IMG/VR virus record: IMGVR_UViG_3300046692_000144
Span: 21,621-85,620 of that record
From: a virus
Taxonomy: Duplodnaviria > Heunggongvirae > Uroviricota > Caudoviricetes
Length of the DNA: 64,000 nt
Direction: 5' to 3' (one strand)
How positions within the stretch are numbered: the stretch's first letter is position 1; each line of letters begins with the position of its first letter. This document shows positions 651 through 50,266 of this stretch, in pieces. Position numbers and translations under genes: made by a program. The notes beneath the pieces are model-generated. The model ran no database searches. It worked only from the letters and a program-made list of their open reading frames with translations, and was not told where the DNA came from.

Positions 651-673
651 GAACTGACCTCAGGGTCAAGAGA

Positions 674-1710: not shown

Positions 1711-1727
1711 GTGGTATAACAATGATG
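1711..1727 (+). promoter_or_regulatory. promoter-like motif GTGGTATAACAATGATG (extended -10 TGnTATAAC)
   Basis: One of 4 near-identical GGTATAACA(A/G)T(A/G)(A/G)TG copies. Lies 32 bp upstream of the polymerase operon start codon. Confidence 0.4.
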
Positions 1728-1758
1728 TAACACCCCATAACACTTAGAGGTTTTCACC

Positions 1759-3934: not shown

Positions 3935-4230
3935 TGATATCTACGATGAGGCTGAGTAAGCCTCTTGAGTTAAGGCTACATGTAGAAGATGCGATTATCG
4001 AGGCCAGTGTCTACTCTGCTGATGGCGGGTTCTTGGCACCGGCCTTCTCGTATGTCATGGGCAGTCCTATGGATCTTCGTAGGTCTGTCCTTGGTGTTCA
4101 CTTCTTTCAGCCTGAGAGGTGTCCGGGAGAAGTAGTCCACGTTGACATCACCGCCAGCATTAAGTTCGGTACCCAAGTTCTTAGCGACTACCGAGAAATG
4201 GTCAAACCCTTCCCACTAACCACAGAGTGA
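3931..4230 (+). CDS. hypothetical protein
   Basis: ATGA overlap with the upstream gene. Confidence 0.35.
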   Translation: MMISTMRLSKPLELRLHVEDAIIEASVYSADGGFLAPAFSYVMGSPMDLRRSVLGVHFFQPERCPGEVVHVDITASIKFGTQVLSDYREMVKPFPLTTE

Positions 4231-4236
4231 TCTGAG

Positions 4237-5241
4237 ATGTATTCAAACGTCTTGTTTAGTTTGCCTCCGGAAGCGAGGCTCTCTCTTAGGACTCCCAAGG
4301 ACTTCTTTTCGAACGACCCTGTAAAAAGGGTAGTATCGATCATGCATGACCCGGGTGGACCTGGTACAGAGAAGTTGGCAACCAACGTAGTGAGCCTGCT
4401 TCTAGGCTCTCCGGTGAAACTACTGCGTGCAATCAAAGGGGCCCGGTTCGTTCAAGGTTCAGTCAATGATCCGGATCGATTGTCGGTGTGTAGTTTTTAC
4501 GTTGACGGGGAGGAGGCGGTAAAGAAGTCTTCTAACGTCTACGAGGCAAACCTTGAGGCTATGGGTCGATTCAAGTCTATGGCGGAGAAGCCTTTGGGGG
4601 TAGGGAGATACCAATCAAATCTCTGTCAAGAGGTTTACCTGGGACCGTCATACCCCTCGTCTTTCCCAGATGTTACCGACGATAGTACTCTAGTCGAAAG
4701 CCAGACTATCCGTGATATTCACCTGGCTCGTTTGTCGCGGATGACAGATCGTGTAGGTGGGGTATATGGAGTCCACGCATTTGATAGATGGGCTAACGAA
4801 AGACCGATAGGAGCTATGACCACAACTATTGGTGGGCCCCACGATACCTTCCGAGCTGCGGATTTTGATGGTGACGTTACTGCGGAATGGCGTAATGTTC
4901 GGCAGGGTGCCATGGCGGAATTAGCCGATATGGCCGCACGTCAAATTAATGACAACATGGGTCGTAATGGGTTTCTTCGTCAGATGACGAGGGCACAAGA
5001 ACTGACTATTGTCGATGAAATAGATCGAGAGATTGTTAGAGAGTTGACTTTGGGAAGGCAGAATTCTCGTAACGAAGCCTCTCGTCGTATTAATCGGTTT
5101 GGGGAAGAACTTCATACCCAGTTCTACGATGAGATTGCTCGATCTGCGAGTACTGTGACTTACCGTACGGACGACATTCGGCCTCACCTACCACAGAACC
5201 AACGTAACCGAGGACCCGTTCCTCGTAACCAACGCTGGTAA
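4237..5241 (+). CDS. hypothetical protein (334 aa)
   Basis: Long ORF with phage-like codon usage, followed by a terminator at 5247-5271. Confidence 0.45.
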   Translation: MYSNVLFSLPPEARLSLRTPKDFFSNDPVKRVVSIMHDPGGPGTEKLATNVVSLLLGSPVKLLRAIKGARFVQGSVNDPDRLSVCSFYVDGEEAVKKSSNVYEANLEAMGRFKSMAEKPLGVGRYQSNLCQEVYLGPSYPSSFPDVTDDSTLVESQTIRDIHLARLSRMTDRVGGVYGVHAFDRWANERPIGAMTTTIGGPHDTFRAADFDGDVTAEWRNVRQGAMAELADMAARQINDNMGRNGFLRQMTRAQELTIVDEIDREIVRELTLGRQNSRNEASRRINRFGEELHTQFYDEIARSASTVTYRTDDIRPHLPQNQRNRGPVPRNQRW

Positions 5242-5246
5242 ACAAG

Positions 5247-5271
5247 GGCCCCATTAAGGGGCCTTTTCTTT
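5247..5271 (+). terminator. rho-independent terminator (GGGCCCC-loop-GGGGCC + U-run)
   Basis: Hairpin plus TTTTCTTT. Confidence 0.55.
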
Positions 5272-5310
5272 GGTATAAACAAAGTGCAATCCATAGCTTA
5301 GGAGGCTCTG

Positions 5311-6319: not shown

Positions 6320-6780
6320 GTGGTGGAAATATCAAACCGCTGCACGCGATGCCTCAGTACTGCTTCCCAGGCGTCAAAGGTGATCCAGGTGTCCTAAAGG
6401 CAGTACGGACTATGGCCAAGCCTATCCATGGTATGTTCATGGTTCGTAACTTGAACACCGAACAGACGTTGGGTTCGTTTGTCATGGGTAACACCTCCGG
6501 CTACGATGGTCGTTGGTTTCTTGGTCGTATTCGTAAACACAAAACCCAACCAGGCCGTTTCGAAATTCTGATCCGTCGTAATAAGACGTGCTACTATAAA
6601 ACCGTCGATTCTGAACATGATCTTGCAGACGAATTGCGGTTCATGGACGTAGATGCAGACGTCGAATTCTCTAGCGCTTCCGGTGGGTGGATAACTACGC
6701 CCGACGCAGAGTTTACAGAAATAGGGTTCTCCTCTGGGGAGCCATCGAGGACAAACGGATGGGAAAGTCTGTCGCAGTAA
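6316..6780 (+). CDS. hypothetical protein
   Basis: ATGA overlap with the upstream gene; runs into the polA part 2 start. Confidence 0.4.
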   Translation: MSGGNIKPLHAMPQYCFPGVKGDPGVLKAVRTMAKPIHGMFMVRNLNTEQTLGSFVMGNTSGYDGRWFLGRIRKHKTQPGRFEILIRRNKTCYYKTVDSEHDLADELRFMDVDADVEFSSASGGWITTPDAEFTEIGFSSGEPSRTNGWESLSQ

Positions 6781-8348
6781 AAGAAGAAGCACCGGTATAC
6801 AACACGTATGAGGACTTCCCTCCGGAGGATCTCTACCAGTATGCTGGTGTTGACTGCTTAGCGACAACGGGGGTACTGAACGCAGTATTCCCCAAGATCG
6901 TAGAGCAGAAGTCGTACATGTATTCAAACGGTGGGATCATCGTAGGTGGTAAAGCGCCTGCGATCATCGACTTCATGGATAAGGTAGAAATGCCTGCACA
7001 TGAGTTCCTCATTGACCTGGAATTGAATGGTCTTCGGTACGATGTAGAACTGAATAAGAGCCAGTCGAAGAAGATTCAGGAGGAGTTGCCAGCGTTAGAG
7101 GACAACGTCTTCTCCTTGTTCGGGAAGAAGTTCAACCCTGACTCGGGTAAGGAACTCGGGGATCTTCTTTATCGTGAGCTTGGGTTTACCCCGCCGAGTT
7201 ACACGAAGAAGAATGAGCCGTCTGTCGATGGGGACGCACTGGCTTCCTTGGCTAAGACCCATGACCTTGAATGGTTACGGGTCCTTGCTAGACGAAACAA
7301 CCTGGCATCGGTAGACCGTACGTTCTTCCGTAACTATGTCAGTGACTTCGTGAAGTCTGACGGTCGTATTCACCCGAGTTACAACCTCTTCGGTACTAGT
7401 TCGTATCGAATCACCGGTGACAAACCAAACCTCACCCAATTGCCTAACGCCCAGACCGAGTCGAAGCTTGGGTATGCGATTCGACAGTGCTACATCGCTG
7501 ATCCCGGTCACCTGTTCCTCTGTGCTGACCAAAGCTCTGCCGAAGTGAAGATCTTGGGTGCTCTGTGTAAAGACCCGAAACTGCTCCGGGCTATTGCAGA
7601 AGGTAAGGACTTCCACTCGTACTCTGCTAGTCAGATGCATGGCATTCCTTACGAAGAGATCGTCTGGCACTTGGACTACGAAGGTGACGACGTTGCTATC
7701 CTTGCTATCAAGAAGAAGTACAAAGGCTTGCGTCAAGGCTCGAAGGCTCTGACCTTCGGAATCCTTTATGGCTCCAGCGTTAAGGGCATCGCTTACAACC
7801 TGAACATCACCGAAGCGGAAGCTACTCGTCTCATCGCAATGTACTTCAAAGAGTTCCCACTCATTGAGGTGTATGTGAACGACGCTCATGCAATGGCGAA
7901 GTACAACCATTACGTGATGAACACCTTCGGTCAGGCCAAACGTGAATACGGGGCTATGGACATCTTCCGTAAGACTGCGGTTTACAACGCAGCTTTCCGG
8001 AACGCTCAGAACGTACGTGTTCAGAGTACTGCGTCTACTACCGGTCTGTACGCCTTCTCGAAGTTGAACGAGGCGATCAAACCAATCGGTGGTCGTTCTA
8101 TCTGCACTGTGTATGACTCTGTTGAACTTGAAGTTCCTTTCAAGAAGACCGCAGAGACCATCGAAGCCACCTTCTACACGATGGAAGATCGTCTGGTAGA
8201 AGACTTCGACTGGTTGGATCTACCGATAGCCATCGACTGTGAGATCGGCCCTAACTGGGGTCAGCAGGTCAAGGTTCATCGTGGTATCACCCAGGCAGAA
8301 GTTGAGAAACTGATGCTGGATAAATACCAAATAAACATGGCTGCATAA
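6759..8348 (+). CDS. DNA polymerase A, C-terminal part (Exo III motif plus polymerase domain)
   Basis: YQYAGVDCLATTGVL aligns to Pol I Exo III YAAEDADVTLQL. RIHPSYNLFGTSSYRITGDKPNLTQLP is motif A. KILGALCKDPKLLRAIAEGKDFHSYSASQMHG is the O-helix/motif B region. VYDSVELEV is motif C. The start could instead be the GTG at 6687, which overlaps the upstream gene by 94 nt. Confidence 0.85.
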   Translation: MGKSVAVKEEAPVYNTYEDFPPEDLYQYAGVDCLATTGVLNAVFPKIVEQKSYMYSNGGIIVGGKAPAIIDFMDKVEMPAHEFLIDLELNGLRYDVELNKSQSKKIQEELPALEDNVFSLFGKKFNPDSGKELGDLLYRELGFTPPSYTKKNEPSVDGDALASLAKTHDLEWLRVLARRNNLASVDRTFFRNYVSDFVKSDGRIHPSYNLFGTSSYRITGDKPNLTQLPNAQTESKLGYAIRQCYIADPGHLFLCADQSSAEVKILGALCKDPKLLRAIAEGKDFHSYSASQMHGIPYEEIVWHLDYEGDDVAILAIKKKYKGLRQGSKALTFGILYGSSVKGIAYNLNITEAEATRLIAMYFKEFPLIEVYVNDAHAMAKYNHYVMNTFGQAKREYGAMDIFRKTAVYNAAFRNAQNVRVQSTASTTGLYAFSKLNEAIKPIGGRSICTVYDSVELEVPFKKTAETIEATFYTMEDRLVEDFDWLDLPIAIDCEIGPNWGQQVKVHRGITQAEVEKLMLDKYQINMAA

Positions 8349-11241: not shown

Positions 11242-11772
11242 ATGAAACACGTTAAAGGCGATTTGATCCTAGGCTTCAGCGAAGGTGACTTCGACGTAAT
11301 CGTCCACGGTTGTAACTGTGGTAATAACATGGGCGATGGCATTGCCAGGACTATCAAGGAGAAATACCCGGAAGCTTACGAGGCGGATTGCCGTACGGTT
11401 CGTTTCGACAAAACGAAGTTGGGGACGTACACCCACGCAGATATCTACCGGGATCTCCGAAACTCAGACGGTGTTCGTCGTGGAGTCTTTTTAGGTACGA
11501 TCATCAATGCCTATACCCAGTTCCACTGGTACGGCAAGGGTGTTCTCTGTGACTACGATGCGTTGCGATCTGTGTTCAGGCAGTTGAAGCCGGACTACGG
11601 TAATCAAGGCAAGTCCTTCGGTGTGCCTGCGATTGGAGCTGCTCGTGCTGGCGGTGACTGGCGGATCATTTCTGCAATCATCGACGAAGAGCTGGAAGGC
11701 GAGGAAGTGATCTTCGTTGAGTACAACGGTGTTGACGCTGTTCGTGGTGATTACAAGAGGAATATGAGATGA
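11242..11772 (+). CDS. macro-domain-like protein (putative ADP-ribose binding or processing)
   Basis: VIVHGCNCGNNMGDGIARTIKEKYPEA fits the macro-domain signature N-x-x-N-x-x-(L/M)-G-x-G-(V/I)-A-x-x-I. A second Gly-rich motif GVPAIGAARAGGDW follows. No search was run. Confidence 0.4.
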   Translation: MKHVKGDLILGFSEGDFDVIVHGCNCGNNMGDGIARTIKEKYPEAYEADCRTVRFDKTKLGTYTHADIYRDLRNSDGVRRGVFLGTIINAYTQFHWYGKGVLCDYDALRSVFRQLKPDYGNQGKSFGVPAIGAARAGGDWRIISAIIDEELEGEEVIFVEYNGVDAVRGDYKRNMR

Positions 11773-16965: not shown

Positions 16966-17050
16966 GCGGATATGGTGGAATCGACAGACACGAAAGGCTT
17001 AGGTCCTTTTGCCGAAAGGCGTGAGAGTTTGAATCTCTCTTTCCGCACCA
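16966..17050 (+). tRNA. tRNA-Leu (anticodon TAG), class II with long variable arm, CCA encoded
   Basis: Acceptor GCGGATA / TTTCCGC, anticodon arm AAAGG-CTTAGGT-CCTTT, variable hairpin GCC-GAAA-GGC, T-arm GAGAG-TTTGAAT-CTCTC, ACCA. Confidence 0.7.
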
Positions 17051-17145
17051 GTTATAAGGCAAGAGTGAAAGCCGGACTCTGAGAAGTAAATCCGAGAGGG
17101 AGACAGATATAAACCTCTACGAACGTTTCTCTTGCTTTGTTTTAC

Positions 17146-17227
17146 GGAGAGTTGGCAGATTGGGAATGCGCGGCGCTGTAAACGCTGTTCGAAAGTAGAA
17201 GTGGTTCGATTCCATTACTCTCCACCA
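17146..17227 (+). tRNA. tRNA-Tyr (anticodon GTA), long variable arm, CCA encoded
   Basis: Acceptor GGAGAGT / ACTCTCC, anticodon arm CGGCG-CTGTAAA-CGCTG, T-arm AGTGG-TTCGATT-CCATT, ACCA. Confidence 0.7.
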
Positions 17228-17232
17228 TATAT

Positions 17233-17318
17233 TCCGGGATAGGCAAATTGGCAACCCCACTTGGCTGTTAACCAAGCGTTTAATTACACTGCTGGTTCGA
17301 CCCCAGCTCCCGGAGCCA
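17233..17318 (+). tRNA. tRNA-Asn-like (anticodon GTT) with unusually long variable region (about 14 nt)
   Basis: Acceptor TCCGGGA / TCCCGGA, discriminator G, CCA. Anticodon arm CTTGG-CTGTTAA-CCAAG. T-arm GCTGG-TTCGACC-CCAGC. The D region is irregular. Confidence 0.55.
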
Positions 17319-17338
17319 TTTAACTAAGAGCACAGTAC

Positions 17339-17593
17339 ATGACTGAAATAGTATTTGCTTTTAACGCAATATCGAGTAGTTCTGACCGCTACCTCGGTAC
17401 CTGCAGAGTAAAAGACGGAGACAGTATCTTCGGAGCTTTGCAGGACGCACTAAAAGAAGCAACCGGTGAAGAGTACGCTTACTTGGAATCGGTAGACTTG
17501 TACACTGACAACCTTGAGTACCAAGATCAGTGCAGAGGTTTTGTTTCTCTTCTTGTGAAGGACTTCCAACGAGCCTACGAGTTAGAACAATGA
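17339..17593 (+). CDS. hypothetical protein
   Basis: ORF. Confidence 0.4.
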   Translation: MTEIVFAFNAISSSSDRYLGTCRVKDGDSIFGALQDALKEATGEEYAYLESVDLYTDNLEYQDQCRGFVSLLVKDFQRAYELEQ

Positions 17594-17823
17594 AACTCAC
17601 AATGATCCCTATGGATCAAAACAACCGTATGTTCCGACCCATTGCCATTGGCCTTAACGAAGGTCGTCTGTTCGTAAGAACTGATTGGTGGTGGGTCGGG
17701 TTTCGCTGTACCCCCGATGGAAAAGTTAGGGCATTCATATGTCAACTGAAAGCAACTCCGTTCGCCTCGCTCGTATCGAGCTTGAGCTTCTTGAAAAACA
17801 AGCTGAAGACCCTTCTGACCTAG
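17590..17823 (+). CDS. hypothetical protein
   Basis: ATGA-coupled ORF. Overlaps the next gene by about 85 nt in another frame. Confidence 0.3.
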   Translation: MKLTMIPMDQNNRMFRPIAIGLNEGRLFVRTDWWWVGFRCTPDGKVRAFICQLKATPFASLVSSLSFLKNKLKTLLT

Positions 17824-18302
17824 AATGGCAGAAGATGATGACCCGAGATGTTCTTCAGGTCGTCCAGGTCATTTCAGAGCAAGGCCACTCTGGTGGAAGT
17901 ATTGGTCCTTTCCTTAACCTGGTTAGGAAGTGTGCTCTGCAAGAGAACCTTACCCCTCTTACTGGCGAAGACTCTGAGTGGAGTGAAGTAGGTCCCGCCA
18001 TGTGGCAAAACAAGCGATACTCTGCGGTGTTCAAAGACGACGAAGGTAAGGCCTACGACATCGAAGGTTATATCGGTGTTGATCCTGATGGCTGGACGTA
18101 CACGGGTGGCGGTAAGCAGACTACCTGCTACATCGAGTTCCCGTATACGAAGAGCCGTAAGTATTACCCTCGACATGAGCTTATTGCCAAGGCCCCGAGC
18201 TTCACTATGACATTCGAAGAGTCGCTCTGCGATACGGTCGAAGAAGTCATGGAGATCTACGTCAACGCAGGTATTCCTGTACGGGACAAAGTCCTGGTAT
18301 AA
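17739..18302 (+). CDS. hypothetical protein
   Basis: 187-aa ORF. Confidence 0.45.
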   Translation: MSTESNSVRLARIELELLEKQAEDPSDLEWQKMMTRDVLQVVQVISEQGHSGGSIGPFLNLVRKCALQENLTPLTGEDSEWSEVGPAMWQNKRYSAVFKDDEGKAYDIEGYIGVDPDGWTYTGGGKQTTCYIEFPYTKSRKYYPRHELIAKAPSFTMTFEESLCDTVEEVMEIYVNAGIPVRDKVLV

Positions 18303-18314
18303 GGACTGTGTAGA

Positions 18315-18382
18315 AGGAATGTAGCTCAACTGGTAGAGCACACCAACTTTGGTGAGTCGCAGGTTCGAATCCTGCCATTGGG
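18315..18382 (+). ncRNA. aberrant tRNA-like element (canonical D- and T-arms, 4-nt 'anticodon' loop, poor acceptor pairing) followed by a GGGCCC-UUCG-GGGCCC hairpin/terminator
   Basis: gtagctcaactggtagagc is a D-arm and gcaggttcgaatcctgc is a T-arm. caccaactttggtg forms a 5-bp stem with a 4-nt loop. Acceptor aggaatg / cattggg pairs at only 4 of 7 positions. Confidence 0.35.
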
Positions 18383-18428
18383 CCCTTCGGGGCCCTTTCT
18401 ATTTGCCTATCAAAACAAGGACTTGTCT

Positions 18429-18629
18429 ATGTTTCTAAAAGTGGAGGGAAAGACGTACCGTAAGCGCCGTGGAAAGATTGTGGAGATTCCTAAGGAATGG
18501 GTACACGTAGTTCCACCAAAGAGCTGTAAACGGGAACGCAAACAAGCCAGCGTGGCTAAAGGACGTAGTCGTCATCGTAGTTATGTTTGGAGGAAAGATG
18601 CAGATAGTTCCGATAGCCGCATCGATTGA
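18429..18629 (+). CDS. hypothetical basic protein
   Basis: ORF; the start is uncertain. Confidence 0.3.
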   Translation: MFLKVEGKTYRKRRGKIVEIPKEWVHVVPPKSCKRERKQASVAKGRSRHRSYVWRKDADSSDSRID

Positions 18630-18786
18630 CGAAGAGTTACCTCGGTTGCAGGACTGTGACCGCTGGGGTAATTTAGTAGTTTGGGAAAAGGGCAGAAAAA
18701 GATGGTCTATTGTGACCCTCGAACACCTTCTTGATTACCGTATTTGTTACAGTCACTGGGCATACTTGCCAAAGGACATTGAATGA
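18583..18786 (+). CDS. hypothetical protein
   Basis: ORF. Confidence 0.3.
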   Translation: MFGGKMQIVPIAASIDEELPRLQDCDRWGNLVVWEKGRKRWSIVTLEHLLDYRICYSHWAYLPKDIE

Positions 18787-19079
18787 AATCAGTTCTAGTA
18801 TACGACTACTCCGGCCAAGGAGAAGGTCAGACGATTAAGATCGTGTTCACCAACTCACCAAGCATCACTGATGAACAAGCCTTGGCAGATATGAAGGAAG
18901 ACATGGATGGGTATTTCCACGTCGGGATCAAACTCATAGACCTTGAGTGCATTGCATTCGACTCGAAGTGGATGCGGCTTATCGAGGCGCACGTACCGGT
19001 ACTGTTCAAGTACATCACCGGCAATGACAAAGATTACTTGCTGAGTATTGACTATGACTATCATGTGAATTACAGTTGA
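18783..19079 (+). CDS. hypothetical protein
   Basis: ATGA-coupled ORF. Confidence 0.4.
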   Translation: MKSVLVYDYSGQGEGQTIKIVFTNSPSITDEQALADMKEDMDGYFHVGIKLIDLECIAFDSKWMRLIEAHVPVLFKYITGNDKDYLLSIDYDYHVNYS

Positions 19080-19106
19080 CGGACTAATCCTCAACGGGTA
19101 CTCGCA

Positions 19107-19319
19107 ATGAAAGTTTTGATCAACTGTAAGGACTATGAATTCGAAGAAGGTGAAAAGCTTACCTACGAGATGATCCTATCTCAGGTAGGCTACGATCCTA
19201 AATCAGTAATCACCGTAGTTTATTCTCGCGGTAACACCTGTGGCAGTCTGACCTTCGGCCAAGGTATTGGCGTTGTTGAGAATTTGAAGATCGATGCCTG
19301 TCGTACTGGCAACGCCTAA
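19107..19319 (+). CDS. hypothetical protein
   Basis: ORF. Confidence 0.4.
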   Translation: MKVLINCKDYEFEEGEKLTYEMILSQVGYDPKSVITVVYSRGNTCGSLTFGQGIGVVENLKIDACRTGNA

Positions 19320-19326
19320 GCTTTAC

Positions 19327-19402
19327 GGGCCGTTAGCATAGTGGTTCAATGCGTGGACCTCATAAGTCTCGGATAGGTGTTCAATTCACCTACGGCCCAC
19401 CA
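19327..19402 (+). tRNA. tRNA with anticodon CAT (elongator Met or Ile2/lysidine), CCA encoded
   Basis: Acceptor GGGCCGT / ACGGCCC with the G1-C72 pair intact, D-arm GCAT...ATGC, anticodon loop CTCATAA, T-arm GGTG-TTCAATT-CACC, ACCA. Confidence 0.75.
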
Positions 19403-19416
19403 ATCAAGGTACTCAC

Positions 19417-19635
19417 ATGAAGTGCTCTAAACACCCTACTTACGAGGCAACGCAGGCTCCAACTGCGGATTGTAAGGAATGTAAGTTAATATGGGATATA
19501 ACTCAGATGTCTCCTGCGGAGGTAGAAGCAGGAAGACAGCGGTTAGAGAGCAGACGAGTAATGACGTCTACTAACTTCGGTGAGATTGTCGAAGGGATCT
19601 TTGATGTGATCGGTGACATCATAGACTTCGACTAA
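19417..19635 (+). CDS. hypothetical Cys-containing protein
   Basis: ORF. Confidence 0.4.
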   Translation: MKCSKHPTYEATQAPTADCKECKLIWDITQMSPAEVEAGRQRLESRRVMTSTNFGEIVEGIFDVIGDIIDFD

Positions 19636-19806
19636 AGCAGTGATGATACCGTTGTTTATCTGCGATTGCGGAAACGGTGTCCCTAGTTAGAACAACGGTA
19701 AGTCGGGTACTACCAGGCAGGCGGTTCAGAGTCCTGTTGTTGCAGACCCTCTCCGGTAGTTTGATCAACTATGTTCTCTCGACGTTTGAAATAACGTCAC
19801 TTTTTC

Positions 19807-19894
19807 GGCGGGTTGACAGAGTGAACGATTGTAGCTGACTTGAAATCAGCCGGGTCTAACGGCCCCCAGGGTTTGAATCCCTGACCCGCCTCCA
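19807..19894 (+). tRNA. tRNA-Ser (anticodon TGA), class II, CCA encoded
   Basis: Acceptor GGCGGGT / ACCCGCC, anticodon arm CTGA-CTTGAAA-TCAG, long variable arm CCGGGTCTAACGGCCCC, T-arm CAGGG-TTTGAAT-CCCTG. Confidence 0.8.
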
Positions 19895-22540: not shown

Positions 22541-22563
22541 AGAGGCCCGAGGGCCTCTTTTAG
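22541..22563. terminator. bidirectional terminator hairpin AGAGGCCC-GA-GGGCCUCU between convergent genes
   Basis: Direct reading; U-run on the + side. Confidence 0.5.
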
Positions 22564-23183
22564 CTTAAGTGAGAGACTTCAAAGTTTTCATAGACTACCC
22601 AGCCGCCTTCTGTTTCCGGACCAGAATTGTCTATCACATATGCACCGGCTTTAAAGTAGAACGGGAACGCAGTCCACAATGGGCTTACTTGAGTTTGAAA
22701 ACCAAGTCCATTTATCGTAACGGTCAGCATCCCTGACTTATCTATCTCTATCTTGTACTCGAACGACTCTCCTAGAGGGCACGGCACTGAAAGAGCCTTA
22801 GTGGTCAGGCCATTAGGTACTTCTCGAAAATCGATTCGGGCAACCCCATTCCACCAAGTAACCATCAGGAATGGGTTTGAAGCTTTATACGCATGGATTT
22901 GACCTACGATTACTTTTCCAGAACTTGGAATCAGTTCTAGACGAACCTTGCCAGTCAGGGTATGTACTGCCTCACCGGCCACCCAGTTGTAGGGTTCTCC
23001 AGAGCGAGGGAGAGTTTCACGAGTCTCAGTACGAGGACTTGAACTAGATCCAGATAAATCACCAAGAACTGAGCACCAGAAATTTGTATGGCCTTTTGGA
23101 TCGACCCACATTAAATCTTGAGGGGGCTTCTCTGGATACAGGTAAACGGCACCGTGAGCGGTGATATTGCCGAAGTAAAACAT
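22560..23183 (-). CDS. polysaccharide lyase family 7 (alginate-lyase-like) protein
   Basis: Three PL7 signature blocks are present: RTETRE (R-T/S-E-x-R), VGQIHAY (QIH) and FYFKAGAYV (YFKAG-V/A-Y). Confidence 0.6.
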   Translation of the reverse strand: MFYFGNITAHGAVYLYPEKPPQDLMWVDPKGHTNFWCSVLGDLSGSSSSPRTETRETLPRSGEPYNWVAGEAVHTLTGKVRLELIPSSGKVIVGQIHAYKASNPFLMVTWWNGVARIDFREVPNGLTTKALSVPCPLGESFEYKIEIDKSGMLTVTINGLGFQTQVSPLWTAFPFYFKAGAYVIDNSGPETEGGWVVYENFEVSHLS

Positions 23184-25367: not shown

Positions 25368-26213
25368 TTATCTGCGGTAGGCCATCACAATTTCCCTGAC
25401 TAAAGGGTCTCGTGTGATGTCATCCTCAGTGAACTTCACGATGGCGACTGAGTGAGAGTCCTGTAGTTTGTACAGAGAATCTTCTAGACCATTGCCTTTT
25501 CCAGGTGGTATATCAGATTGCTCCAGGTCTCCGTCAATGATTACCCGAGAGCCTTCGCCAAGACGAGTCAGGAACATCTTCATCTGCTTAGGGGTGGTGT
25601 TCTGGGCTTCGTCCAGGATAACCAATGCGTTGCGGAAGGTAGATCCACGCATCATCATCAAGGGCATGGCTACGATCTTCCCGTACTCAAGGTAGGACTC
25701 CATCTTCTTACGTCCAAGCTTACCTTCGATCACGTCGATGAAAGGGCCAAGCCACGGCAAAAACTTGTCCTGCTCCGAGCCGGGTAGAAAACCCATCTCT
25801 TCGTCACAACCGACCATAGGCCGAGTAATAACGATTTTCTCAATTTCTTTTGCCTCTAGCATCTCACAAGCGATAGAGGTCGCCACGAAAGTCTTACCTA
25901 CCCCAGCAGGTCCTAGACCGAAAACAATTCGTTGGTTTTCGATAGCTTCTGCGTATGCTCCCTGCATCCGATTTCTAGGCTGGAACGCCCCGAAGCGAAC
26001 TCGGTTCACTTCGTATTCTAAATGAGCTTCTACGTCTTTCTGAGCGTTAATGAGTTCCGGGAATTTCCCAGCATTCTTCTTGTTCCGACTAGCTTGACGT
26101 GTTTCAGGCTTCTTATAGCTCGACATAGACAGCACCTCGGTAGGGTAGGATACTTCCATTTTAAGGCTGGCCAGAGTTTCCTGGTATAAGCAAGATAGCA
26201 AAGGAGAATACAC
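25368..26213 (-). CDS. phoH: PhoH-family ATPase
   Basis: GPAGVGKTF (Walker A), VILDEAQN (Walker B), and the PhoH-typical ITRPMVGCDEEMGFLPGSEQDK. Confidence 0.85.
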   Translation of the reverse strand: MYSPLLSCLYQETLASLKMEVSYPTEVLSMSSYKKPETRQASRNKKNAGKFPELINAQKDVEAHLEYEVNRVRFGAFQPRNRMQGAYAEAIENQRIVFGLGPAGVGKTFVATSIACEMLEAKEIEKIVITRPMVGCDEEMGFLPGSEQDKFLPWLGPFIDVIEGKLGRKKMESYLEYGKIVAMPLMMMRGSTFRNALVILDEAQNTTPKQMKMFLTRLGEGSRVIIDGDLEQSDIPPGKGNGLEDSLYKLQDSHSVAIVKFTEDDITRDPLVREIVMAYRR

Positions 26214-26214
26214 A

Positions 26215-26931
26215 ATGCTAATTAATTCTAAGTTCCGTGATTTTTACGATAACTGTGCGGGTTATGGCGTGGACACGTCTGTCCGGTACAACCGAGAGGA
26301 GGAAAAGGTCAGGATGCTTCCGTACTACCGGGCCTCTCGAAAAGATGAGGTAGACCAGACGTACAAAAACCTCCTCGCAGCGTGTGATGGGTGGGGCCGG
26401 GCATTGACTGGAGAATTCGCGGACACTGTGAGCCGACGTGACCCATACACTGTTGGCGTGTTCGGCTTCTGCGGGGTTCTTCACCGGGTAGTTGTTTACC
26501 GTGAAAGAAAGCAAACCGAGTCCAGCGTTAAATACAACAGCTCATTTTTCGATACCGAGACTTATCGAACCGCATTCTCCAAGCATGAGATGCCTCAGGA
26601 GTGGGAAGGTAAGCACCGCAACTGGAGAACTGAGCGAACTCTCTTCGAAGACTTCGAAGTCCCAACTTCTCGTGAGAACGTTGAGGTATTTACCGAACTC
26701 GGTATTCCGATGTTCATTGTTTTCGATAACACACTGGTAAAGAATCCAAACCTCAAAGAATGGGGTTTGACGAAGTTCAAGGATGGCGTCACTGTCTTCC
26801 AAGAGATTTCTTCGTTTATCTCAGGTACACTGGCAACGGCAAACCAAATGAAGCACGTTGCCTCGGACCAAGAACTGATCCAAGCACACGGCTTCGATAA
26901 GCACAGTTTCAGAAAGGGGAAAACGAAGTGA
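26215..26931 (+). CDS. hypothetical protein
   Basis: 238-aa ORF divergent from phoH. Confidence 0.45.
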   Translation: MLINSKFRDFYDNCAGYGVDTSVRYNREEEKVRMLPYYRASRKDEVDQTYKNLLAACDGWGRALTGEFADTVSRRDPYTVGVFGFCGVLHRVVVYRERKQTESSVKYNSSFFDTETYRTAFSKHEMPQEWEGKHRNWRTERTLFEDFEVPTSRENVEVFTELGIPMFIVFDNTLVKNPNLKEWGLTKFKDGVTVFQEISSFISGTLATANQMKHVASDQELIQAHGFDKHSFRKGKTK

Positions 26932-27161
26932 AGTACCTTTTGATCGTAATGGCTCTTGCTCTGTCCGGCTGCGATTTAACGAGCAAGATCGACAAGGTTG
27001 CCACCGGCGACAATGCAAAGACGGCGTGTATTAAACGACGCTTAGTCCTTGAAAACGTTGAGTATTTCCTCACGAAAACACAGGTTACCTGTGTAGACCC
27101 TTCCACCCTTGAGTTCATCAAACTGAACATCCACAACGTCCAGCGGAGTCAACAGAAATGA
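26928..27161 (+). CDS. small lipoprotein
   Basis: MKYLLIVMALALSGC has the lipobox LSGC. Confidence 0.45.
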   Translation: MKYLLIVMALALSGCDLTSKIDKVATGDNAKTACIKRRLVLENVEYFLTKTQVTCVDPSTLEFIKLNIHNVQRSQQK

Positions 27162-27997
27162 AAGAGAATATCTACCTGCGTTTCGGCAACGTAACTGAAG
27201 AAGTCAGCTACATCAATTTCCCAGGCGGGGAAGTGGTGCCACAGATTCAGACAGGCAACCTCTACCCTGAAAAAGTGATGGAAGTAGAGATCGTGGCCAG
27301 GCTGACAACGCAGGGTGATCTGCTGAACCTGATCATGATCCACGATGCTGTTAGTCGTGTGTATCCCCGAGCAGCGATCTCCGCGTTTATCCCGTACATG
27401 CCGTACGCTCGGCAGGATCGGGTATGCAATCCAGGTGAGCCTCTGAGTATTGCCGTCGTTGCACGACTGATCAACGCCTGCAACTTCGTCAACGTGAAGA
27501 TCCTCGATCCTCACAGTGAAGTGACCCCGGCCCTGTTCAACCGCCTCGAAGTTGTCAACCAGTACGACATCTTCAAAGACATCTATTCGTCGTGGCGAGA
27601 AGTCTACATTGCGGCCCCGGATGGCGGTGCTGCGAAGAAGGCGGAAATGTTCGCTAAACGTGTAGGTGCGGCTGGGGTAATTCACTGCACCAAAGTACGG
27701 GACCTCGAAACGGGTATTATCTCGGGTACTCGTGTAAACGATACTGTCGAAGGTCGTACCCTTCTGGTTCTGGATGATATCGGTGATGGTTGCGGGACTT
27801 TCGTTCCATTGCTTCACTCCCTGAAAAGCCAAGGTGCAACGTCGGTAAGCCTTGCAGTGACCCACGGTCTTTTCTCAAAGGGGATTCCGGTGGTTTCCGA
27901 TATCTACGACCAAGTTTTCACCACTAACAGTTACATTCGCCATCTCAAGGGCACAGGTAATCTGGAAGTACTCAACGTAACCCGCGAAACCAACTAA
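27158..27997 (+). CDS. ribose-phosphate pyrophosphokinase-like enzyme (Prs homologue; possibly an ADP-ribose pyrophosphokinase of a phage NAD+ reconstitution pathway)
   Basis: IPYMPYARQDR (Prs IPYFGYARQDR), LVLDDIGDGCGT (PRPP-binding loop VLVDDMIDTGGT), VTHGLFSKG. Confidence 0.8.
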   Translation: MKENIYLRFGNVTEEVSYINFPGGEVVPQIQTGNLYPEKVMEVEIVARLTTQGDLLNLIMIHDAVSRVYPRAAISAFIPYMPYARQDRVCNPGEPLSIAVVARLINACNFVNVKILDPHSEVTPALFNRLEVVNQYDIFKDIYSSWREVYIAAPDGGAAKKAEMFAKRVGAAGVIHCTKVRDLETGIISGTRVNDTVEGRTLLVLDDIGDGCGTFVPLLHSLKSQGATSVSLAVTHGLFSKGIPVVSDIYDQVFTTNSYIRHLKGTGNLEVLNVTRETN

Positions 27998-28007
27998 GGA
28001 AGTATCC

Positions 28008-29807
28008 ATGCAAGTGCAGATCCCTACGCCAGTAAGCTCCACCGCATACCCTGCAATCACCCGTATGCAAACCCCTCCGGCTCCGATGTACGCAGCCATC
28101 CTCTGTGACGCGTACAAGTTTTGTCACCCAGGTCTGTTCCCGAAAGGCTATACGAAGGGTCAGGGTAACTTCACCCCACGTAGCACCAAGCACTTCCAAG
28201 GCAGTTCTAAGTACGACGGTAAGATCGTTGTCGCGGGGGTTCTCCAAGGTCTGAATGCCATCAACCATGCCTGGAACCAATTCTTTGAAGCTTCGTGGGA
28301 AGAAGTTGAGAGCGTGATCCGCCCTCTGATAGAAGCAACTACTCCGAACGCAGATCTCACCATCTACTCCGATCTGCACAAACTGGGTTATCTGCCTATC
28401 CAGGTTCACGCAGTCGAAGAAGGCCGCGTAGTACGGGCGGGTACTCCGATCATCTTGGTGGACAACACCCATGAGGACTTCGCATGGCTGGCAAGCTACA
28501 CCGAAGACCACTTCAGTAACGAACTGTGGCCTGCCTGCACCGTAGCAACTATTGCTCGTGAGTACCGAATTGTTGCAGAGAAGTACGCAGCACTGACGGC
28601 TGACGATAACGGCTACGTAACGTATCAGTGCCACGACTTCAGTCTTCGCGGTCTGTTTGGCATGTGGGCGGGCTACAAAACTGGTCCTTCGATGCTGTCT
28701 GCGTTTACCGGCACCGATAACATCCCGGGTTGCTTGGCTGCGATGCACGAATACGGCGCAACCAAGGCTGACTTCGGTTCCATCATGGCTACCGAACACA
28801 GTCTGACAACTCTGAACATTCAGATGCGTGCTGTGATGCGTGGCTGCTCCTTGTTCGAAGCAGAGGTAAGCTTCCTCTCTGACTACTTGGACAACGTCGG
28901 TCCTATCAGCTATGTGATGGACAGCTATGACTACTTCGGTATGTTGGAGCACGGCCTGCCACTGCTCAAAGACAAGATCCTGGCTCGTGAAGGGGGTCCG
29001 TTCGTAGTTCGGCCTGACAGCGGCGTCCCTAAGGACATCATCTGCGGCACGGTTGAAGTCTTCGAAATCGGCTCCGAAGCTGAAACCGAAGACCATGCCA
29101 AAGGCTGGATCAAGGACTATGTAACCGAGATGGTCTACGATGAAACCGCACACGGCGAACCTGGCCGTTCCGAAGTTTCTGGCGTTGCCCGCTGGAACGG
29201 TGAGTTGTACCGCTACACCGTGGACATCGAGTGGAACCGTCGTGACAAGCAGTTCTACTACATGGACGGCAAGAAGGTTTCGAAGTTCGAACCTACTACC
29301 CTGACCGTGGAAGAGAAAGGCAGCATCCAGTGGCTGTGGGAACTGTTCGGCGGCACCGTGAACAGCAAAGGCTACAAAGTGCTGAATCCGAAGATCCGCC
29401 TGATCTACGGTGACTCCATTACTATCCAACGCTTCGAAGCTATCTTGCAGCGTCTGATGGAAATGGGCTTCTCCGCAGAGAATATCGTGGTCGGTGTCGG
29501 TAGCTACAGCATCCAGCACATCACCCGTGACTCTCTGGGCTTTGCTATGAAGCTGACTTACGGGGAAGTCAACGGTCTGAAAATCGATGTCTACAAGGCA
29601 CCGAAAACAGACACCGGTAAGCACTCTGCCAAAGGCTGGCTGGCCGTAGAGTTTGATGAGGCTGGTGAGTACATCCCTGTCGAAGGGAAACCCGTTGGTT
29701 ATTACGGTGTTCTCAACTGTGCGTACCGGAACAGCCAAGTTCTATCCAAAGCAACGTTGGTGTCGGTTCGTACGAATCTGACTGAAAGTCTGCCGAAAGC
29801 AGCGTAA
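28008..29807 (+). CDS. nicotinamide phosphoribosyltransferase-like enzyme (NadV/NAMPT homologue; possibly nicotinamide-ADPR transferase)
   Basis: ILCDAYKFCHPGLFP (NAMPT DSYK motif region), CHDFSLRG and GTDN are family hallmarks. At 599 aa it is longer than canonical NadV. Confidence 0.8.
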   Translation: MQVQIPTPVSSTAYPAITRMQTPPAPMYAAILCDAYKFCHPGLFPKGYTKGQGNFTPRSTKHFQGSSKYDGKIVVAGVLQGLNAINHAWNQFFEASWEEVESVIRPLIEATTPNADLTIYSDLHKLGYLPIQVHAVEEGRVVRAGTPIILVDNTHEDFAWLASYTEDHFSNELWPACTVATIAREYRIVAEKYAALTADDNGYVTYQCHDFSLRGLFGMWAGYKTGPSMLSAFTGTDNIPGCLAAMHEYGATKADFGSIMATEHSLTTLNIQMRAVMRGCSLFEAEVSFLSDYLDNVGPISYVMDSYDYFGMLEHGLPLLKDKILAREGGPFVVRPDSGVPKDIICGTVEVFEIGSEAETEDHAKGWIKDYVTEMVYDETAHGEPGRSEVSGVARWNGELYRYTVDIEWNRRDKQFYYMDGKKVSKFEPTTLTVEEKGSIQWLWELFGGTVNSKGYKVLNPKIRLIYGDSITIQRFEAILQRLMEMGFSAENIVVGVGSYSIQHITRDSLGFAMKLTYGEVNGLKIDVYKAPKTDTGKHSAKGWLAVEFDEAGEYIPVEGKPVGYYGVLNCAYRNSQVLSKATLVSVRTNLTESLPKAA

Positions 29808-29811
29808 CAAA

Positions 29812-29840
29812 CAGGGGCTCTTCGGGCCCCTACTTATTTC
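29812..29840 (+). terminator. rho-independent terminator
   Basis: AGGGGC-UCUUCG-GCCCCU followed by ACTTATTT. Confidence 0.45.
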
Positions 29841-33495: not shown

Positions 33496-33569
33496 GCGGG
33501 TATGGTGTAGTGGTAACACTAGAGCCTTCCAAGCTTTCGTCGTCGGTTCGAGTCCGACTACCCGCTCCA
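33496..33569 (+). tRNA. tRNA-Gly (anticodon TCC), CCA encoded
   Basis: Acceptor GCGGGTA / TACCCGC, D-arm GTGT-AGTGGTAA-CAC, anticodon arm AGAGC-CTTCCAA-GCTTT, T-arm GTCGG-TTCGAGT-CCGAC, TCCA. Confidence 0.8.
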
Positions 33570-46713: not shown

Positions 46714-47721
46714 TTAGTACCCGATAGCTAACCAGTGAACAGCGTCTGCTGACTGAGTCATAGTGCTAGCTGACCAAGTTACTACTGTGAAGTTAGTCGT
46801 GGTTGCCGCCCCTACCCCTGCAACAGAGGTCGTCGCTAGAGCCGGGGCGCCATTGGTAAGTTCCGTGGCATAATGCTGTAGGCATGCGTTAGGGAATATA
46901 ATAGGGAAGGTCACCGTGGTTGCCCCGCCACTGGAAGCCGTATTTGCGTTACCCCACTGTATAATTAGCCCGCCTGGTAGCTTCTGATAACCGTTTGCCG
47001 TTATGTTCTGATTCGTACCGGTGAAATCTGCAAGAGCAAGTTTAAGAGGCATTTCACTAACTAGAGTAGGAACTTGACTCGCCAGAGTAGCGACATTCAG
47101 AATCCCTGCACTTACTGGACAATCGTAGGCTTTAATGCAGTAGAGAACTGAGATGTTTCGCGGACGTGTGTACCCCAAGTTTCCGACGACAGGCGTAATT
47201 ACGGAGCTGCCAGATGATGCTCCCGCCACGATGTCGAAGCCTGCCGGCAACGACGGCAAAGGCTCTGCACCCCACAACGACAACGACTCCGTGAAGAAGT
47301 TGGCTGGAGTTACTGGGATACCGTTGGCCTGGCCCTGACCCGTAACAATCGTGGCGGATTGAGCAGTCCCAATAGCTCGACCAGTATCAACTCCTCTACC
47401 GTTATCCCAACCACGAAGAAACTCTCCTCGAAGATCTGGAAGAGTTGCCGAAGTAGTTCCACCCAAGAAAGTAACCAAGCTTGGGAACGTAGCACTAGAA
47501 ACGGATTGACCGCTGCAAGGCAGATAGCCGTACGGTGCAGTAGGACCATAGTAGGCGATGATCGTACCGATCGGGTTGGCTGCTTTCAGAACATCGTCAG
47601 AAGAAGCTGCACCGAGGTTAGTCCGGGCAGTGGGCTTATCTACTACGTCACTAAAGTTGTTAGCAGCGTAGATTGGTTTTTGAAATCCATCAGGAGACAG
47701 ACCGAAGTATTCAGAAGACAT
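46714..47721 (-). CDS. tail fibre protein (phage tail collar domain), paralogue 1
   Basis: YGYLPCSGQSVSSATFPSLVTFLGG...LPDLRGEFLRGWDNGRGVD is the collar motif. RPRNISVLYCIKAY is conserved. C-terminus ...WLAIGY. Confidence 0.75.
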   Translation of the reverse strand: MSSEYFGLSPDGFQKPIYAANNFSDVVDKPTARTNLGAASSDDVLKAANPIGTIIAYYGPTAPYGYLPCSGQSVSSATFPSLVTFLGGTTSATLPDLRGEFLRGWDNGRGVDTGRAIGTAQSATIVTGQGQANGIPVTPANFFTESLSLWGAEPLPSLPAGFDIVAGASSGSSVITPVVGNLGYTRPRNISVLYCIKAYDCPVSAGILNVATLASQVPTLVSEMPLKLALADFTGTNQNITANGYQKLPGGLIIQWGNANTASSGGATTVTFPIIFPNACLQHYATELTNGAPALATTSVAGVGAATTTNFTVVTWSASTMTQSADAVHWLAIGY

Positions 47722-47730: not shown

Positions 47731-48681
47731 TTAGTACCCGATGGCTACGTAATAGCAGTTAAGTGCTGAACGGGTAGTTGCAGCAGACCACGCTTGGTAA
47801 GAAGCACCTGTAGCGGATTGGCTTTCTATTGTTGCGAAGACTCCCGTCCCGCTTAATGCAGTAATTGCTACCGTTGCAGTCAACGAGACCAGAGCGGTGG
47901 GGAAGACGATTGGGAATGTAAATGGACTTGGCGCACTAGCGCTACCTACAACGGTGCCCCACTGAAGAATCATTCCACTAGGCAGCTTCTGATATCCGGA
48001 TGCTGCTAGGCTAACCCCAAACTGAGTCAATTTAGTACATTGACTAAGCTCAGTCAGAACGTTGCCCATGTTGGCGGTAGAGGTGTTGACCAATGCCCCG
48101 TAGGCTTTCATGCAGTAGAGGACTGAGACGTTTCGTGGTCTGGTTTCAATAGAAGTTCTAGGAGTTCCATTAGTCCCGTCCGATATAGCCGCTCTTATAG
48201 AATCAGTAATAGGCCCAGCGTTGTTGCCGCTAGTAGTGAACATTGCATAGGAGCTACCACCAGTACCTACGGAAATAGCCGAAGAATACGTCTCATTATG
48301 GTAGTGGCCTTGGAACGCGTCTAACTGCAATGTTTTAACTGCACGACTGGAATCTATTCCTCTACCGTTATCCCAACCCCGAAGAAACTCTCCTCGTAGA
48401 TCTGGAAGAACCTGAGAACTACCACCGCCAAGAAAAGTAACTAGATCTGGAAAAGTACCAGAGTTAACAGTTTGTCCATTACACGGCAGATATCCTACAG
48501 GAGCAGTGTTCCCCCAAAACGGAATAATGGTACCGATTGGTACCGAGTTCAGCATGATATCTGACGTGCTTAGAGTTCCAAGGTTTGCAAGCGCAGCAGT
48601 CTTATCCGGCACGTCGGCAAGATTTTGACCCGCACTTAACGGCAGAAGGGCTGCTAGAGATGGTTGACCAAAAAATGCCAT
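47731..48681 (-). CDS. tail fibre protein, paralogue 2
   Basis: Same N-terminal blocks (VGYLPCNGQTV...LPDLRGEFLRGWDNGRGID...RPRNVSVLYCMKAY) with a divergent C-terminus ending YYVAIGY. Confidence 0.75.
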   Translation of the reverse strand: MAFFGQPSLAALLPLSAGQNLADVPDKTAALANLGTLSTSDIMLNSVPIGTIIPFWGNTAPVGYLPCNGQTVNSGTFPDLVTFLGGGSSQVLPDLRGEFLRGWDNGRGIDSSRAVKTLQLDAFQGHYHNETYSSAISVGTGGSSYAMFTTSGNNAGPITDSIRAAISDGTNGTPRTSIETRPRNVSVLYCMKAYGALVNTSTANMGNVLTELSQCTKLTQFGVSLAASGYQKLPSGMILQWGTVVGSASAPSPFTFPIVFPTALVSLTATVAITALSGTGVFATIESQSATGASYQAWSAATTRSALNCYYVAIGY

Positions 48682-49339: not shown

Positions 49340-50266
49340 TTAATAGCCAATGGCGATAAAATGACATCCCGGCGTACTACTCGCACTAGTAATAGTTACG
49401 GCTGAAGTAGTCGAAACCACCGAAACAACGGAGACTGTCGAGTTAACCGGGGTTGCTACCACCTGAAGCGCAGAGTTAGGAAAATTAATCGGTAGAGTTG
49501 TGGCGACTCCTACCGTAGAAGAGTTACCTGTGCCCCACTGAATAATAATACCACCGGGTAATTTCTGGTACCCTGAAACGGTGTTGTTTTGGTTGGCACC
49601 TGTAAAATCCGCGTACTTAACAGCCGCAGCATTCAACGTAGAATAATCACTTACCAATCCGGCTATGTTAACGCTGGAGGTAAAGTTCGAGACTGAGCTG
49701 TAAGCCTTTATGCAGTAGAGGACGGAGACGTTTCTAGGCCTAACAACACCCGTATTGAACGTAGCGACGGTGGCCGACGTTAATGCCACAGTAAATGTTG
49801 ACACAACAGCTACTGAGTCAAACTCTGTGTTATTCCAACAGTGACCTACGCTGCCTGAGCCCCCTGCACTACTTGAAGCGTCTCGGATGTTAGACCCGTT
49901 CTGTAGGTTCAAGTTTGACCTGCCTACATCAACGCCACGACCGTTATCCCATCCTCGCAGGAATTCACCGCGAAGATCCGGGATAGTAGCAGAGCTCTGA
50001 CCTGGGTTCAGAAACTGGACAAGCTCAGGAAAGCTACCAGAAGTAATGGTCTGGCCGGAGCAAGGGAGGTAACCCGCAGGAGCGGCACTACCCCAGTATG
50101 GCATGATCATACCTATCGGTACGGAGTTATACTGAACCTCGGCTTTACTTGGAACATCCAAGCTGGTTCGTGCGGCAGCCTTATCCGGGAGATCTGCAAG
50201 GTTTTTAGCCTTGAACAGAGCCCCTGTAATATCCGCCGGGTTTTGCCCGAAGATGTTAGCAGCCAA
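49340..50266 (-). CDS. tail fibre protein, paralogue 3
   Basis: AGYLPCSGQTITSGSFPELVQFL...IPDLRGEFLRGWDNGRGVD...RPRNVSVLYCIKAY...HFIAIGY. Confidence 0.75.
   Translation of the reverse strand: MAANIFGQNPADITGALFKAKNLADLPDKAAARTSLDVPSKAEVQYNSVPIGMIMPYWGSAAPAGYLPCSGQTITSGSFPELVQFLNPGQSSATIPDLRGEFLRGWDNGRGVDVGRSNLNLQNGSNIRDASSSAGGSGSVGHCWNNTEFDSVAVVSTFTVALTSATVATFNTGVVRPRNVSVLYCIKAYSSVSNFTSSVNIAGLVSDYSTLNAAAVKYADFTGANQNNTVSGYQKLPGGIIIQWGTGNSSTVGVATTLPINFPNSALQVVATPVNSTVSVVSVVSTTSAVTITSASSTPGCHFIAIGY

Follow-up and report, generated by a model that had tools for sequence, protein, structure and literature searches.

A divergent Prs-like and NAMPT-like gene pair in an uncultured phage, predicted to be a member of the NARP1 NAD+ reconstitution module

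Introduction

Two adjacent genes of an uncultured tailed phage raise the question of which route to nicotinamide adenine dinucleotide (NAD+) they serve. They encode a Prs-like and a NAMPT-like protein and lie in a 64,000-nucleotide stretch of a Caudoviricetes genome (IMG/VR record IMGVR_UViG_3300046692_000144, positions 21,621 to 85,620), which we call the window and number from its first nucleotide. In the NARP1 system, Adps makes ADP-ribose pyrophosphate (ADPR-PP) from ADP-ribose and ATP, Namat joins ADPR-PP and nicotinamide into NAD+, and 97% of Adps genes have Namat as a neighbour (Osterman et al., bioRxiv 10.1101/2024.02.11.579819). This pair is found in 4.3% of phages and is an experimentally validated counter-defence. 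NARP2 consists of Nampt and Nmnat, the latter accompanying salvage-type phage Nampts in 94% of cases, and NARP3 of PnuC and NadR. A further variant, NARP1-AP, adds the Macro-domain protein Adpp within two genes of the pair and exploits the product of the aRES NADase (bioRxiv 10.64898/2026.01.28.702374).

A sequence-only reading of the window had favoured NARP1 over NadV/NatV salvage for the pair, and had seen a macro-domain protein elsewhere in the window as fitting the same theme. The competing explanation is conventional salvage, in which a true synthetase of phosphoribosyl pyrophosphate (PRPP) and a true Nampt make nicotinamide mononucleotide (NMN) from ribose-5-phosphate, ATP and nicotinamide, and NadD/NadR of the host finishes NAD+. 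The database labels speak for salvage, since in Pfam and NCBIfam the two proteins fall under Prs and the (nicotinate/nicotinamide) phosphoribosyltransferase family. We report here that the adjacent pair is very probably a divergent member of the known NARP1 module.

Results

The two genes are adjacent and belong to the expected families

The Prs-like gene (27158..27997, plus strand, 279 amino acids [aa]) is followed on the same strand by the NAMPT-like gene (28008..29807, 599 aa), with a gap of 10 nt between the stop codon of the first and the start codon of the second. A strong Shine-Dalgarno sequence precedes the ATG at 28008 and overlaps the stop codon of the Prs-like gene (TAAGGAAGtatccATG). 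The adjacency reported by the sequence-only reading is thus borne out, and so are the families: the first open reading frame (ORF) matches Pfam Pribosyltran_N/Pribosyl_synth and PHROG 619 (Prs, E=8e-80), and the second matches Pfam NAPRTase and PHROG 448 (Nampt, E=3e-141). The arrangement is the usual one in the family. We gathered 83 Namat-family loci from IMG/VR by an alignment/profile query (a single-protein scan gave just 3 distant loci), and all 80 informative ones have an Adps homologue within 6 kb on the same strand.

The Prs-like protein falls in the Adps clade

The Prs-like protein was placed using PHROG, Pfam and NCBIfam models, individual residues and a tree. In blastp comparisons, where Felixounavirus HY02 was taken as a stand-in for Bas63, it scored 146 bits against the Adps of POP17, 135 against that of ICP1, 125 for HY02, 118 for Cody, 92 for SPbetaL1 and 87 for FADO, and 62 bits against Prs of Escherichia coli. 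It lies far under the cut-offs of the curated NCBIfam Prs equivalog models and PRK01259 (54-108 bits vs 296-536), which E. coli Prs passes, and this argues against salvage. With PRK01259 itself (cut-off 297), the Prs-like protein reaches 102 bits, the validated Adps 74-92, POP17 109 and E. coli Prs 533. The broad subfamily TIGR01251 is the only Prs model that it passes (135 bits vs 113), a point in favour of salvage, as is the canonical look of its ARQDR loop. The protein does contain both motifs quoted by the sequence-only reading, IPYMPYARQDR and LVLDDIGDGCGT. We rejected ARQDR as a discriminator between Adps and Prs: it is present in 76 of 80 canonical Prs and in many Adps, and thus shows family membership only.

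The residues that set Adps apart from PRPS are more informative. Structural papers report that the donor (PP) loop is remodelled in Adps, that the C-terminal alpha11-alpha12 regulatory module is lost, and that substitution of K185 abolishes the activity of ICP1 Adps (PMC12774641, PMC13586617). All the ICP1 residues F18, R87, H121, D161, K185, D212, D213 and D216 are kept in the window protein, as F21, R85, H119, D155, K179, D206, D207 and D210. Its donor loop reads DDIGDGCGTF and carries the Adps states G at position 217 and F at 221; position 194 also has the Adps state, I. Glycine at 217 is found in 57 of the 80 Namat-linked Adps from IMG/VR and in 105 of 107 metagenomic sequences of the Adps clade, against threonine in 80/80 canonical Prs; phenylalanine at 221 is found in 68/80 and 107/107 of the same sets, against leucine in 80/80 Prs. 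From the DD motif to the C-terminus the protein has 74 residues (median 70-75 in Adps and 96 in Prs), a length consistent with the absence of the alpha11-alpha12 module described for Adps. Both the donor-loop states and the truncated C-terminus are points against a true PRPP synthetase.

The phylogenetic analysis is consistent with these observations. Trees were built by neighbour-joining from Poisson-corrected distances with 200 bootstraps, and in the Adps tree (42 sequences) the window protein branches deep within the Adps group, with a split between Prs and the rest in 200/200 replicates. The best 120 matches in a homologue search were all of the Adps clade, with no canonical Prs among them. 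On sequence grounds, the Prs-like protein is a member of the phage Adps clade, apart from housekeeping Prs.

The NAMPT-like protein falls in the Namat clade

The best PDB matches of the NAMPT-like protein are 9W5W and 9W5X (267 bits), the crystal structure of SPbetaL1 Namat (PMC12774641, PMC13586617); the scores of Nampt from human and from Xanthomonas are about 150-160 bits. No residue of the catalytic core is lost, which here comprises D34, Y36, F211, R214, D237, H264, R335, D337 and G468-D469; the reference numbering of the kept residues is D13, Y15, F189, R192, D215, the catalytic His, R306 and D308. In the corresponding tree, five NARP2-type phage Nampts (two with an annotated adjoining Nmnat, another with an Nmnat some 4 kb away) are split from all the Adps-linked sequences and the window protein in 200/200 replicates. 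The nearest neighbours of the window protein are POP17 and one IMG/VR contig. The sequence-only reading had named tight clustering of both proteins with housekeeping Prs and NadV as evidence against it, and neither member of the pair clusters with housekeeping enzymes. The NAMPT-like protein is, judging from clade and structural match, a Namat distinct from the Nmnat-linked Nampts.

The selectivity clamp of Namat comprises a helix and a loop, and the window protein has a candidate for each. The first is the clamp helix, for which the published consensus is GS-X-phi-X-phi-X-phi-TRD (PMC12774641, PMC13586617). The window protein has GSYSIQHITRD at aa 498-508, where NARP2 Nampts carry GGGLLQ; the frame and positions 1-4, 6 and 8-11 fit the consensus, with Tyr at position 3, while position 5 is Ile and position 7, which in SPbetaL1 Namat stacks on the adenine, is His. 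Among 78 Adps-adjacent Namats, position 7 is Y in 47, M in 9, C in 8, F in 8 and H in 4, and position 5 is Y in 60, F in 8, L in 5, T in 4 and M in 1, with Ile in none (0/78). Histidine at position 7 is thus rare yet natural, and aliphatic residues do occur at position 5. The second element is the clamp loop, which provides an adenine-stacking residue, either Arg or a stacking residue that follows Lys/Tyr (PMC12774641, PMC13586617). The loop of the window protein, identified by sequence alone, is TPRSTKHF (K61-H62-F63), comparable to K-W-F in HY02 and K-H-F in POP17, and resembles the long form known from Bas63, in which Lys is followed by the stacking residue.

These substitutions suggest another explanation, in which the pair descends from NARP1 with a shifted specificity, the His/Ile clamp and a long insertion altering the donor, either by a relaxed use of ADPR-PP and PRPP or by the use of a modified ADP-ribose derivative. 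The residues at positions 5 and 7 are indeed uncommon, the NAMPT-like protein is the most divergent that we examined, and double clamp mutants of SPbetaL1 Namat have been reported to lose ADPR-PP-driven synthesis while keeping the PRPP reaction. Yet both His at 7 and aliphatic residues at 5 are found in Adps-adjacent Namats, single clamp substitutions were reported to cut activity just 1.3- to 1.7-fold, and the main stacking aromatic at position 3 is present together with the Bas63-type loop. The insertion (about 84 residues after RPDSG, at about aa 352-435) was rejected as a novelty, since most sequences sampled have a long spacer there, and the same type of insertion is found in POP17 and eight IMG/VR loci. 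We therefore regard a shift in specificity as unlikely. The NCBIfam model NF006629, whose cut-off the window protein misses, was also rejected as a means of telling Namat from Nampt, as both kinds pass it.

Public gene calls differ on the start of Namat, at 28008 or 28086, giving 599 aa in a Logan contig and 573 aa (from M27) in a contig from JGI, with 100% identical DNA. The M27 start at 28086 has no Shine-Dalgarno sequence. The resulting N-terminal extension of 26 aa, lacking in other Namats, is probably real because the upstream ATG has a strong ribosome-binding site.

Partners of other NAD+ pathways were not detected

The alternative pathways require additional genes, and these were searched for in the window and in about 19 kb of flanks taken from identical or closely related contigs. 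Among the 90 ORFs of the window (at least 57 aa), there was no Pfam match to CTP_transf_like, NUDIX, NMN_transporter or NadR. A profile made from three phage NMN adenylyltransferases (NMNATs) found nothing in the window or flanks (best score 9 bits). The precomputed Pfam calls for about 10 kb left and about 9 kb right of the window include no NMNAT, Nudix, NadR or PnuC. The window and flanks hence contain no NMN adenylyltransferase alongside the NAMPT-like gene, the combination of a Nampt-clade enzyme and such an enzyme being what defines NARP2, and neither the PnuC-like transporter nor the NadR-like bifunctional enzyme that together define NARP3. These scans uphold the statement that no NatV is visible in the window and extend it to the flanks.

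The pair is best explained as a divergent NARP1 module

The presence of the two genes, their adjacency, their clade membership and the conservation of their catalytic and specificity residues are direct observations, and they are what the window has in common with the NARP1 systems of SPbetaL1, Bas63, FADO and ICP1 (Osterman et al.): the same gene order and strand, the same clades, the same catalytic and contact residues, and no Nmnat found. The likeness extends to the Adps donor-loop signature and the short C-terminus and, judging by sequence, to a Namat-like clamp helix and a long clamp loop resembling that of Bas63. The differences are ones of degree and of context. The window proteins are only 28-38% identical to the NARP1 enzymes validated so far, Ile and His take the place of aromatic residues at clamp positions 5 and 7, Namat has its 26-aa N-terminal extension, and the pair stands behind two unrelated upstream genes. 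Pectobacterium phage POP17 (Certrevirus), whose pair is unannotated, has the closest Namat-like protein in the annotated collection (42% identity) and has in common with the window the insertion type HGEPG...WNR[HR]D, the K-H-F clamp loop and an adjoining Adps, but it belongs to another phage group and its Adps is just 32% identical. The window Adps groups instead with Pseudomonas-phage-like sequences, so that Adps and Namat do not have one common nearest neighbour. With NARP2 of the Vibrio phage KVP40 type, the window has in common the Nampt superfamily and its catalytic core; it differs in lacking a detected Nmnat and the GGGLLQ helix, in the 200/200 split, and in having a Prs-like partner.

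By homology to the characterised enzymes of SPbetaL1, Bas63 and ICP1, the pair would act after a host NADase defence (SIR2-HerA/Nezha, DSR1/2, type I Thoeris, SEFIR and similar) has split NAD+ into ADP-ribose and nicotinamide. The Adps-type enzyme would move the beta,gamma-pyrophosphate of ATP onto the 1'' hydroxyl of ADP-ribose, yielding ADPR-PP, and the Namat-type enzyme would couple ADPR-PP with nicotinamide to give NAD+ directly, bypassing NMN and any NMN adenylyltransferase. The activities of the enzymes, their substrate preference and the anti-defence role of the pair, as well as the structure of its transcript, are predictions of this comparison.

Several points weigh against this assignment. 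It rests on homology throughout, the trees are neighbour-joining trees on simple distances, and the IMG/VR sample was picked with a Namat profile. The Prs outgroup comprises Gammaproteobacteria alone, as the genome scan for Prs returned no others, and the identity of the Prs-like protein to canonical Prs (26-28%) is slightly above that of validated Adps (20-23%). The NAMPT-like protein, besides deviating at two adenine-facing positions of the clamp, scores 366 bits with NF006629, where every reference reaches 432-594. The scans took in all but about 15% of a genome of probably about 97 kb (as estimated from a 97.5-kb contig), and an NMNAT could still lie in the remainder. Finally, Namat enzymes keep a measurable PRPP-dependent synthesis of NMN in vitro, which also speaks for salvage.

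We nevertheless consider salvage improbable. In addition to the features of the Prs-like protein described above, both proteins fall in the NARP1 clades in 200/200 replicates, salvage-type phage Nampts nearly always come with an Nmnat and none was found here, and published work shows that the host NMN route is unnecessary for Bas63. The preference of the sequence-only reading for NARP1 over NadV/NatV thus stands, on the Adps clade, the Namat clade and the lack of a detected NMNAT.

The pair was lost as a single unit in a related phage

A megablast search of the region against annotated phages gave zero matches. The phage is hence one without a close DNA relative among annotated phages; the NARP1 system itself is known and common. 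Exactly the same proteins occur on several metagenomic contigs, among them Logan contigs some 68 kb long, a 97.5-kb contig from JGI (3300046538 Ga0495609_0000109) and another whose listed length is 165 kb. Outside its own uncultured cluster (80-87% identity), Adps has at most 54% identity among the best 120 matches, and the Namat-like protein has no relative above about 42% identity outside its own uncultured lineage.

A related phage provides information on the history of the pair. It is represented by a 168.7-kb contig (GCA_019702715.1, contig JAAQVM011840904.1) and by a second assembly, and it has the same backbone and a homologue of orf238, the first of two genes just upstream of the pair in the window, with no Adps/Namat pair. 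In both of these independent assemblies, the orf238 homologue is followed by an 82-aa ORF (6705-6953 in our locus L186, from the former, and 2560-2808 in L187). This ORF joins, in one reading frame, the start of Adps (residues 1 to about 44) to the end of Namat (residues about 558-597), with the junction at a 'VE' shared by both. It is the scar of a clean in-frame deletion; the ancestor of the wider group had the pair, and both genes went together in this relative, the behaviour expected of an accessory module that can be dispensed with. That the pair in the window is itself a decaying or inactive remnant retained through linkage, for which one might cite this deletion and the NF006629 score under the cut-off, is hardly credible, as each ORF is complete and uninterrupted and retains every catalytic residue, Adps is 80-87% conserved in at least 12 related contigs, and identical copies were found in several independent samples.

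Contigs with identical NARP1 genes vary in gene content in the region near the window's left end (1-5300). For example, a Logan contig has the 334-aa ORF of 4237-5241, which is replaced in the 97.5-kb JGI contig. These differences indicate mosaic variation within the phage population.

The pair and two genes before it appear to form one transcription unit

The two genes upstream of the pair are orf238 (26215..26931, plus strand), a backbone gene whose product has a weak ATP-grasp-like fold, and orf77 (26928..27161, plus strand), which encodes a small lipoprotein-like protein with a signal peptide and an LSGC lipobox (read by eye). The stop and start codons of orf238, orf77 and Adps overlap successively. 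A sigma-70-like promoter candidate (26126..26154, plus strand, 9/12 matches) lies in the divergent gap between PhoH (minus strand) and orf238; the promoter scan is consensus-based and weak, and such sites are modestly enriched over shuffled sequences. Six nucleotides past the stop codon of Namat begins an intrinsic-terminator-like hairpin (29813..29831, plus strand) with an 8-bp stem, 6 G-C pairs and a T-rich tail, from a scan that is also consensus-based and whose total of such sites in the region is not above that of shuffles. The hairpin is probably the end of the transcription unit, and orf238, orf77, Adps and Namat appear, from this layout, to form a single unit that would run from the promoter in the gap between PhoH and orf238 to the hairpin.

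We also considered orf238 and orf77 as new accessory genes of NARP1 and rejected this idea because no homologue is found near the 83 other Namat loci. A homologue of orf238 is retained in the relative that lacks NARP1, and in XaC1 another is unlinked to Nampt. For orf77 there was no Pfam match, and there is no counterpart in the NARP1-less relative.

A macro-domain protein of the Adpp family is encoded away from the pair

The macro-domain protein (11242..11772, plus strand, 176 aa) matches the Pfam Macro domain at 22.1 bits, barely over the cut-off of 22, and PHROG 335 'phosphatase' with E=1e-47. It is 32% identical over its full length to gp176 of Vibrio phage Cody (E=2e-20), whose gene sits between Adps and Namat and whose product is 98.1% identical to the validated Adpp of Gary. 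It also scores 110 bits against an IMG/VR macro protein located between Adps and Namat, and keeps every position conserved at 85% or more in 14 operon-linked macro proteins. Its PDB matches are weak and include yeast Poa1p (6LFQ/6LFU). These comparisons place it in the Adpp family of ADPR-1''-phosphate phosphatases (Poa1p-like).

The gene lies 15.4 kb upstream of the pair in a different gene cluster with many genes between, and so falls outside the published definition of NARP1-AP. A macro gene is found within 6 kb in 13 of the 83 IMG/VR Namat loci (16%), in agreement with the published 15%. The family occurs in about 2,570 phage records, compared with about 1,570 for NARP1, and its genes may adjoin Namat, as in Acinetobacter phage Liucustia, or be unlinked, as in Pseudomonas phage pf16. 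The genome thus resembles the NARP1-AP of Vibrio phage Gary in encoding all three protein families, with a full-length macro homologue that keeps the conserved positions, and differs from it in the distance of the macro gene and in that this family is also found in many phages without NARP1. The suggestion that the macro protein belongs to the same theme as the pair holds as far as the homology to Adpp goes, and is weakened by the distance and by the far wider distribution of the family. A functional link between the macro protein and the pair in this phage is plausible from these homologies.

A Tad3-family protein is a candidate for the same counter-defence theme

The ORF at 17739..18302 (plus strand), 9 kb upstream of the pair, matches Pfam PF25185 with 107 bits (cut-off 27) over profile positions 1-117 of 119, and the solved structure of Tad3 (9B7D_B) with E=2.5e-6 over aa 6-164. 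Past the Pfam domain, the protein continues for about 64 aa at its C-terminus. By these matches it is a candidate inhibitor of the Thoeris TIR protein ThsB, which would belong to the same counter-defence theme while remaining outside the NARP1 pathway. With the pair and the Adpp-family macro gene, this makes three candidate tools against NAD+-centred immunity in one genome.

We tentatively propose that these tools are connected, a scenario that we find possible and somewhat doubtful. The genome would encode a split NARP1-AP, in which the unlinked macro protein would turn the ADPR-1''-phosphate made by aRES into ADP-ribose feeding Adps and Namat, and which, together with the Tad3-family inhibitor of ThsB, would form a three-layer arsenal against NAD+-centred immunity.

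Sixteen nucleotides past the stop codon of the Tad3-like gene lies a tRNA-like element (18318-18379, plus strand; Rfam 42.6 bits, model positions 4-67) that is not called by ARAGORN and that could be a degenerate tRNA or a tRNA-like RNA. Six tRNA genes (Leu, Tyr, Asn, Met, Ser and Gly) are found among small ORFs at 16966-19894 and at 33496-33569, all on the plus strand.

Other features of the window

A DHH/DHHA1 phosphoesterase-family protein with weak Pfam matches is encoded at 40864-41814 (plus strand). Enzymes of this family often break down short or cyclic nucleotides, and by analogy an action against signalling-based defence is conceivable. A Ro60-like protein (vWA_Ro60 E=3e-42, TROVE domain) is encoded at 38429-39928, preceded by a DUF3268 zinc-finger protein at 37911-38414 (both plus strand); no Y RNA was found in the window by Rfam at gathering thresholds. 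On the minus strand are three paralogous tail-fibre-like genes (46714-47721, 47731-48681 and 49340-50266), each with a Collar and a gp53-like C-terminal domain; the first two adjoin, and between the second and third lies a 187-aa ORF. The minus strand also encodes an alginate lyase family protein at 22560-23183 (Pfam Alginate_lyase2, E=7e-34). The alginate lyase, a GC content of about 49% and the relatives of Adps in Pseudomonas phages hint at an alginate-producing host such as Pseudomonas.

Discussion

The main consequence of this analysis is a correction of annotation, at a locus where databases say 'ribose-phosphate pyrophosphokinase' and 'nicotinate phosphoribosyltransferase' and where the evidence points to Adps and Namat. 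The divergent His/Ile variant of the clamp helix offers a natural case on which the published selectivity-clamp model can usefully be tested. The deletion scar in the relative is direct evidence of the two genes being gained and lost together, as a single dispensable unit. The presence in this genome of Adpp-family and Tad3-family genes outside the operon suggests that split forms of NARP1-AP may escape counts based on operons. If the split NARP1-AP proposed here were true, scans that require the macro gene to be inside the operon would undercount the phages that resist aRES.

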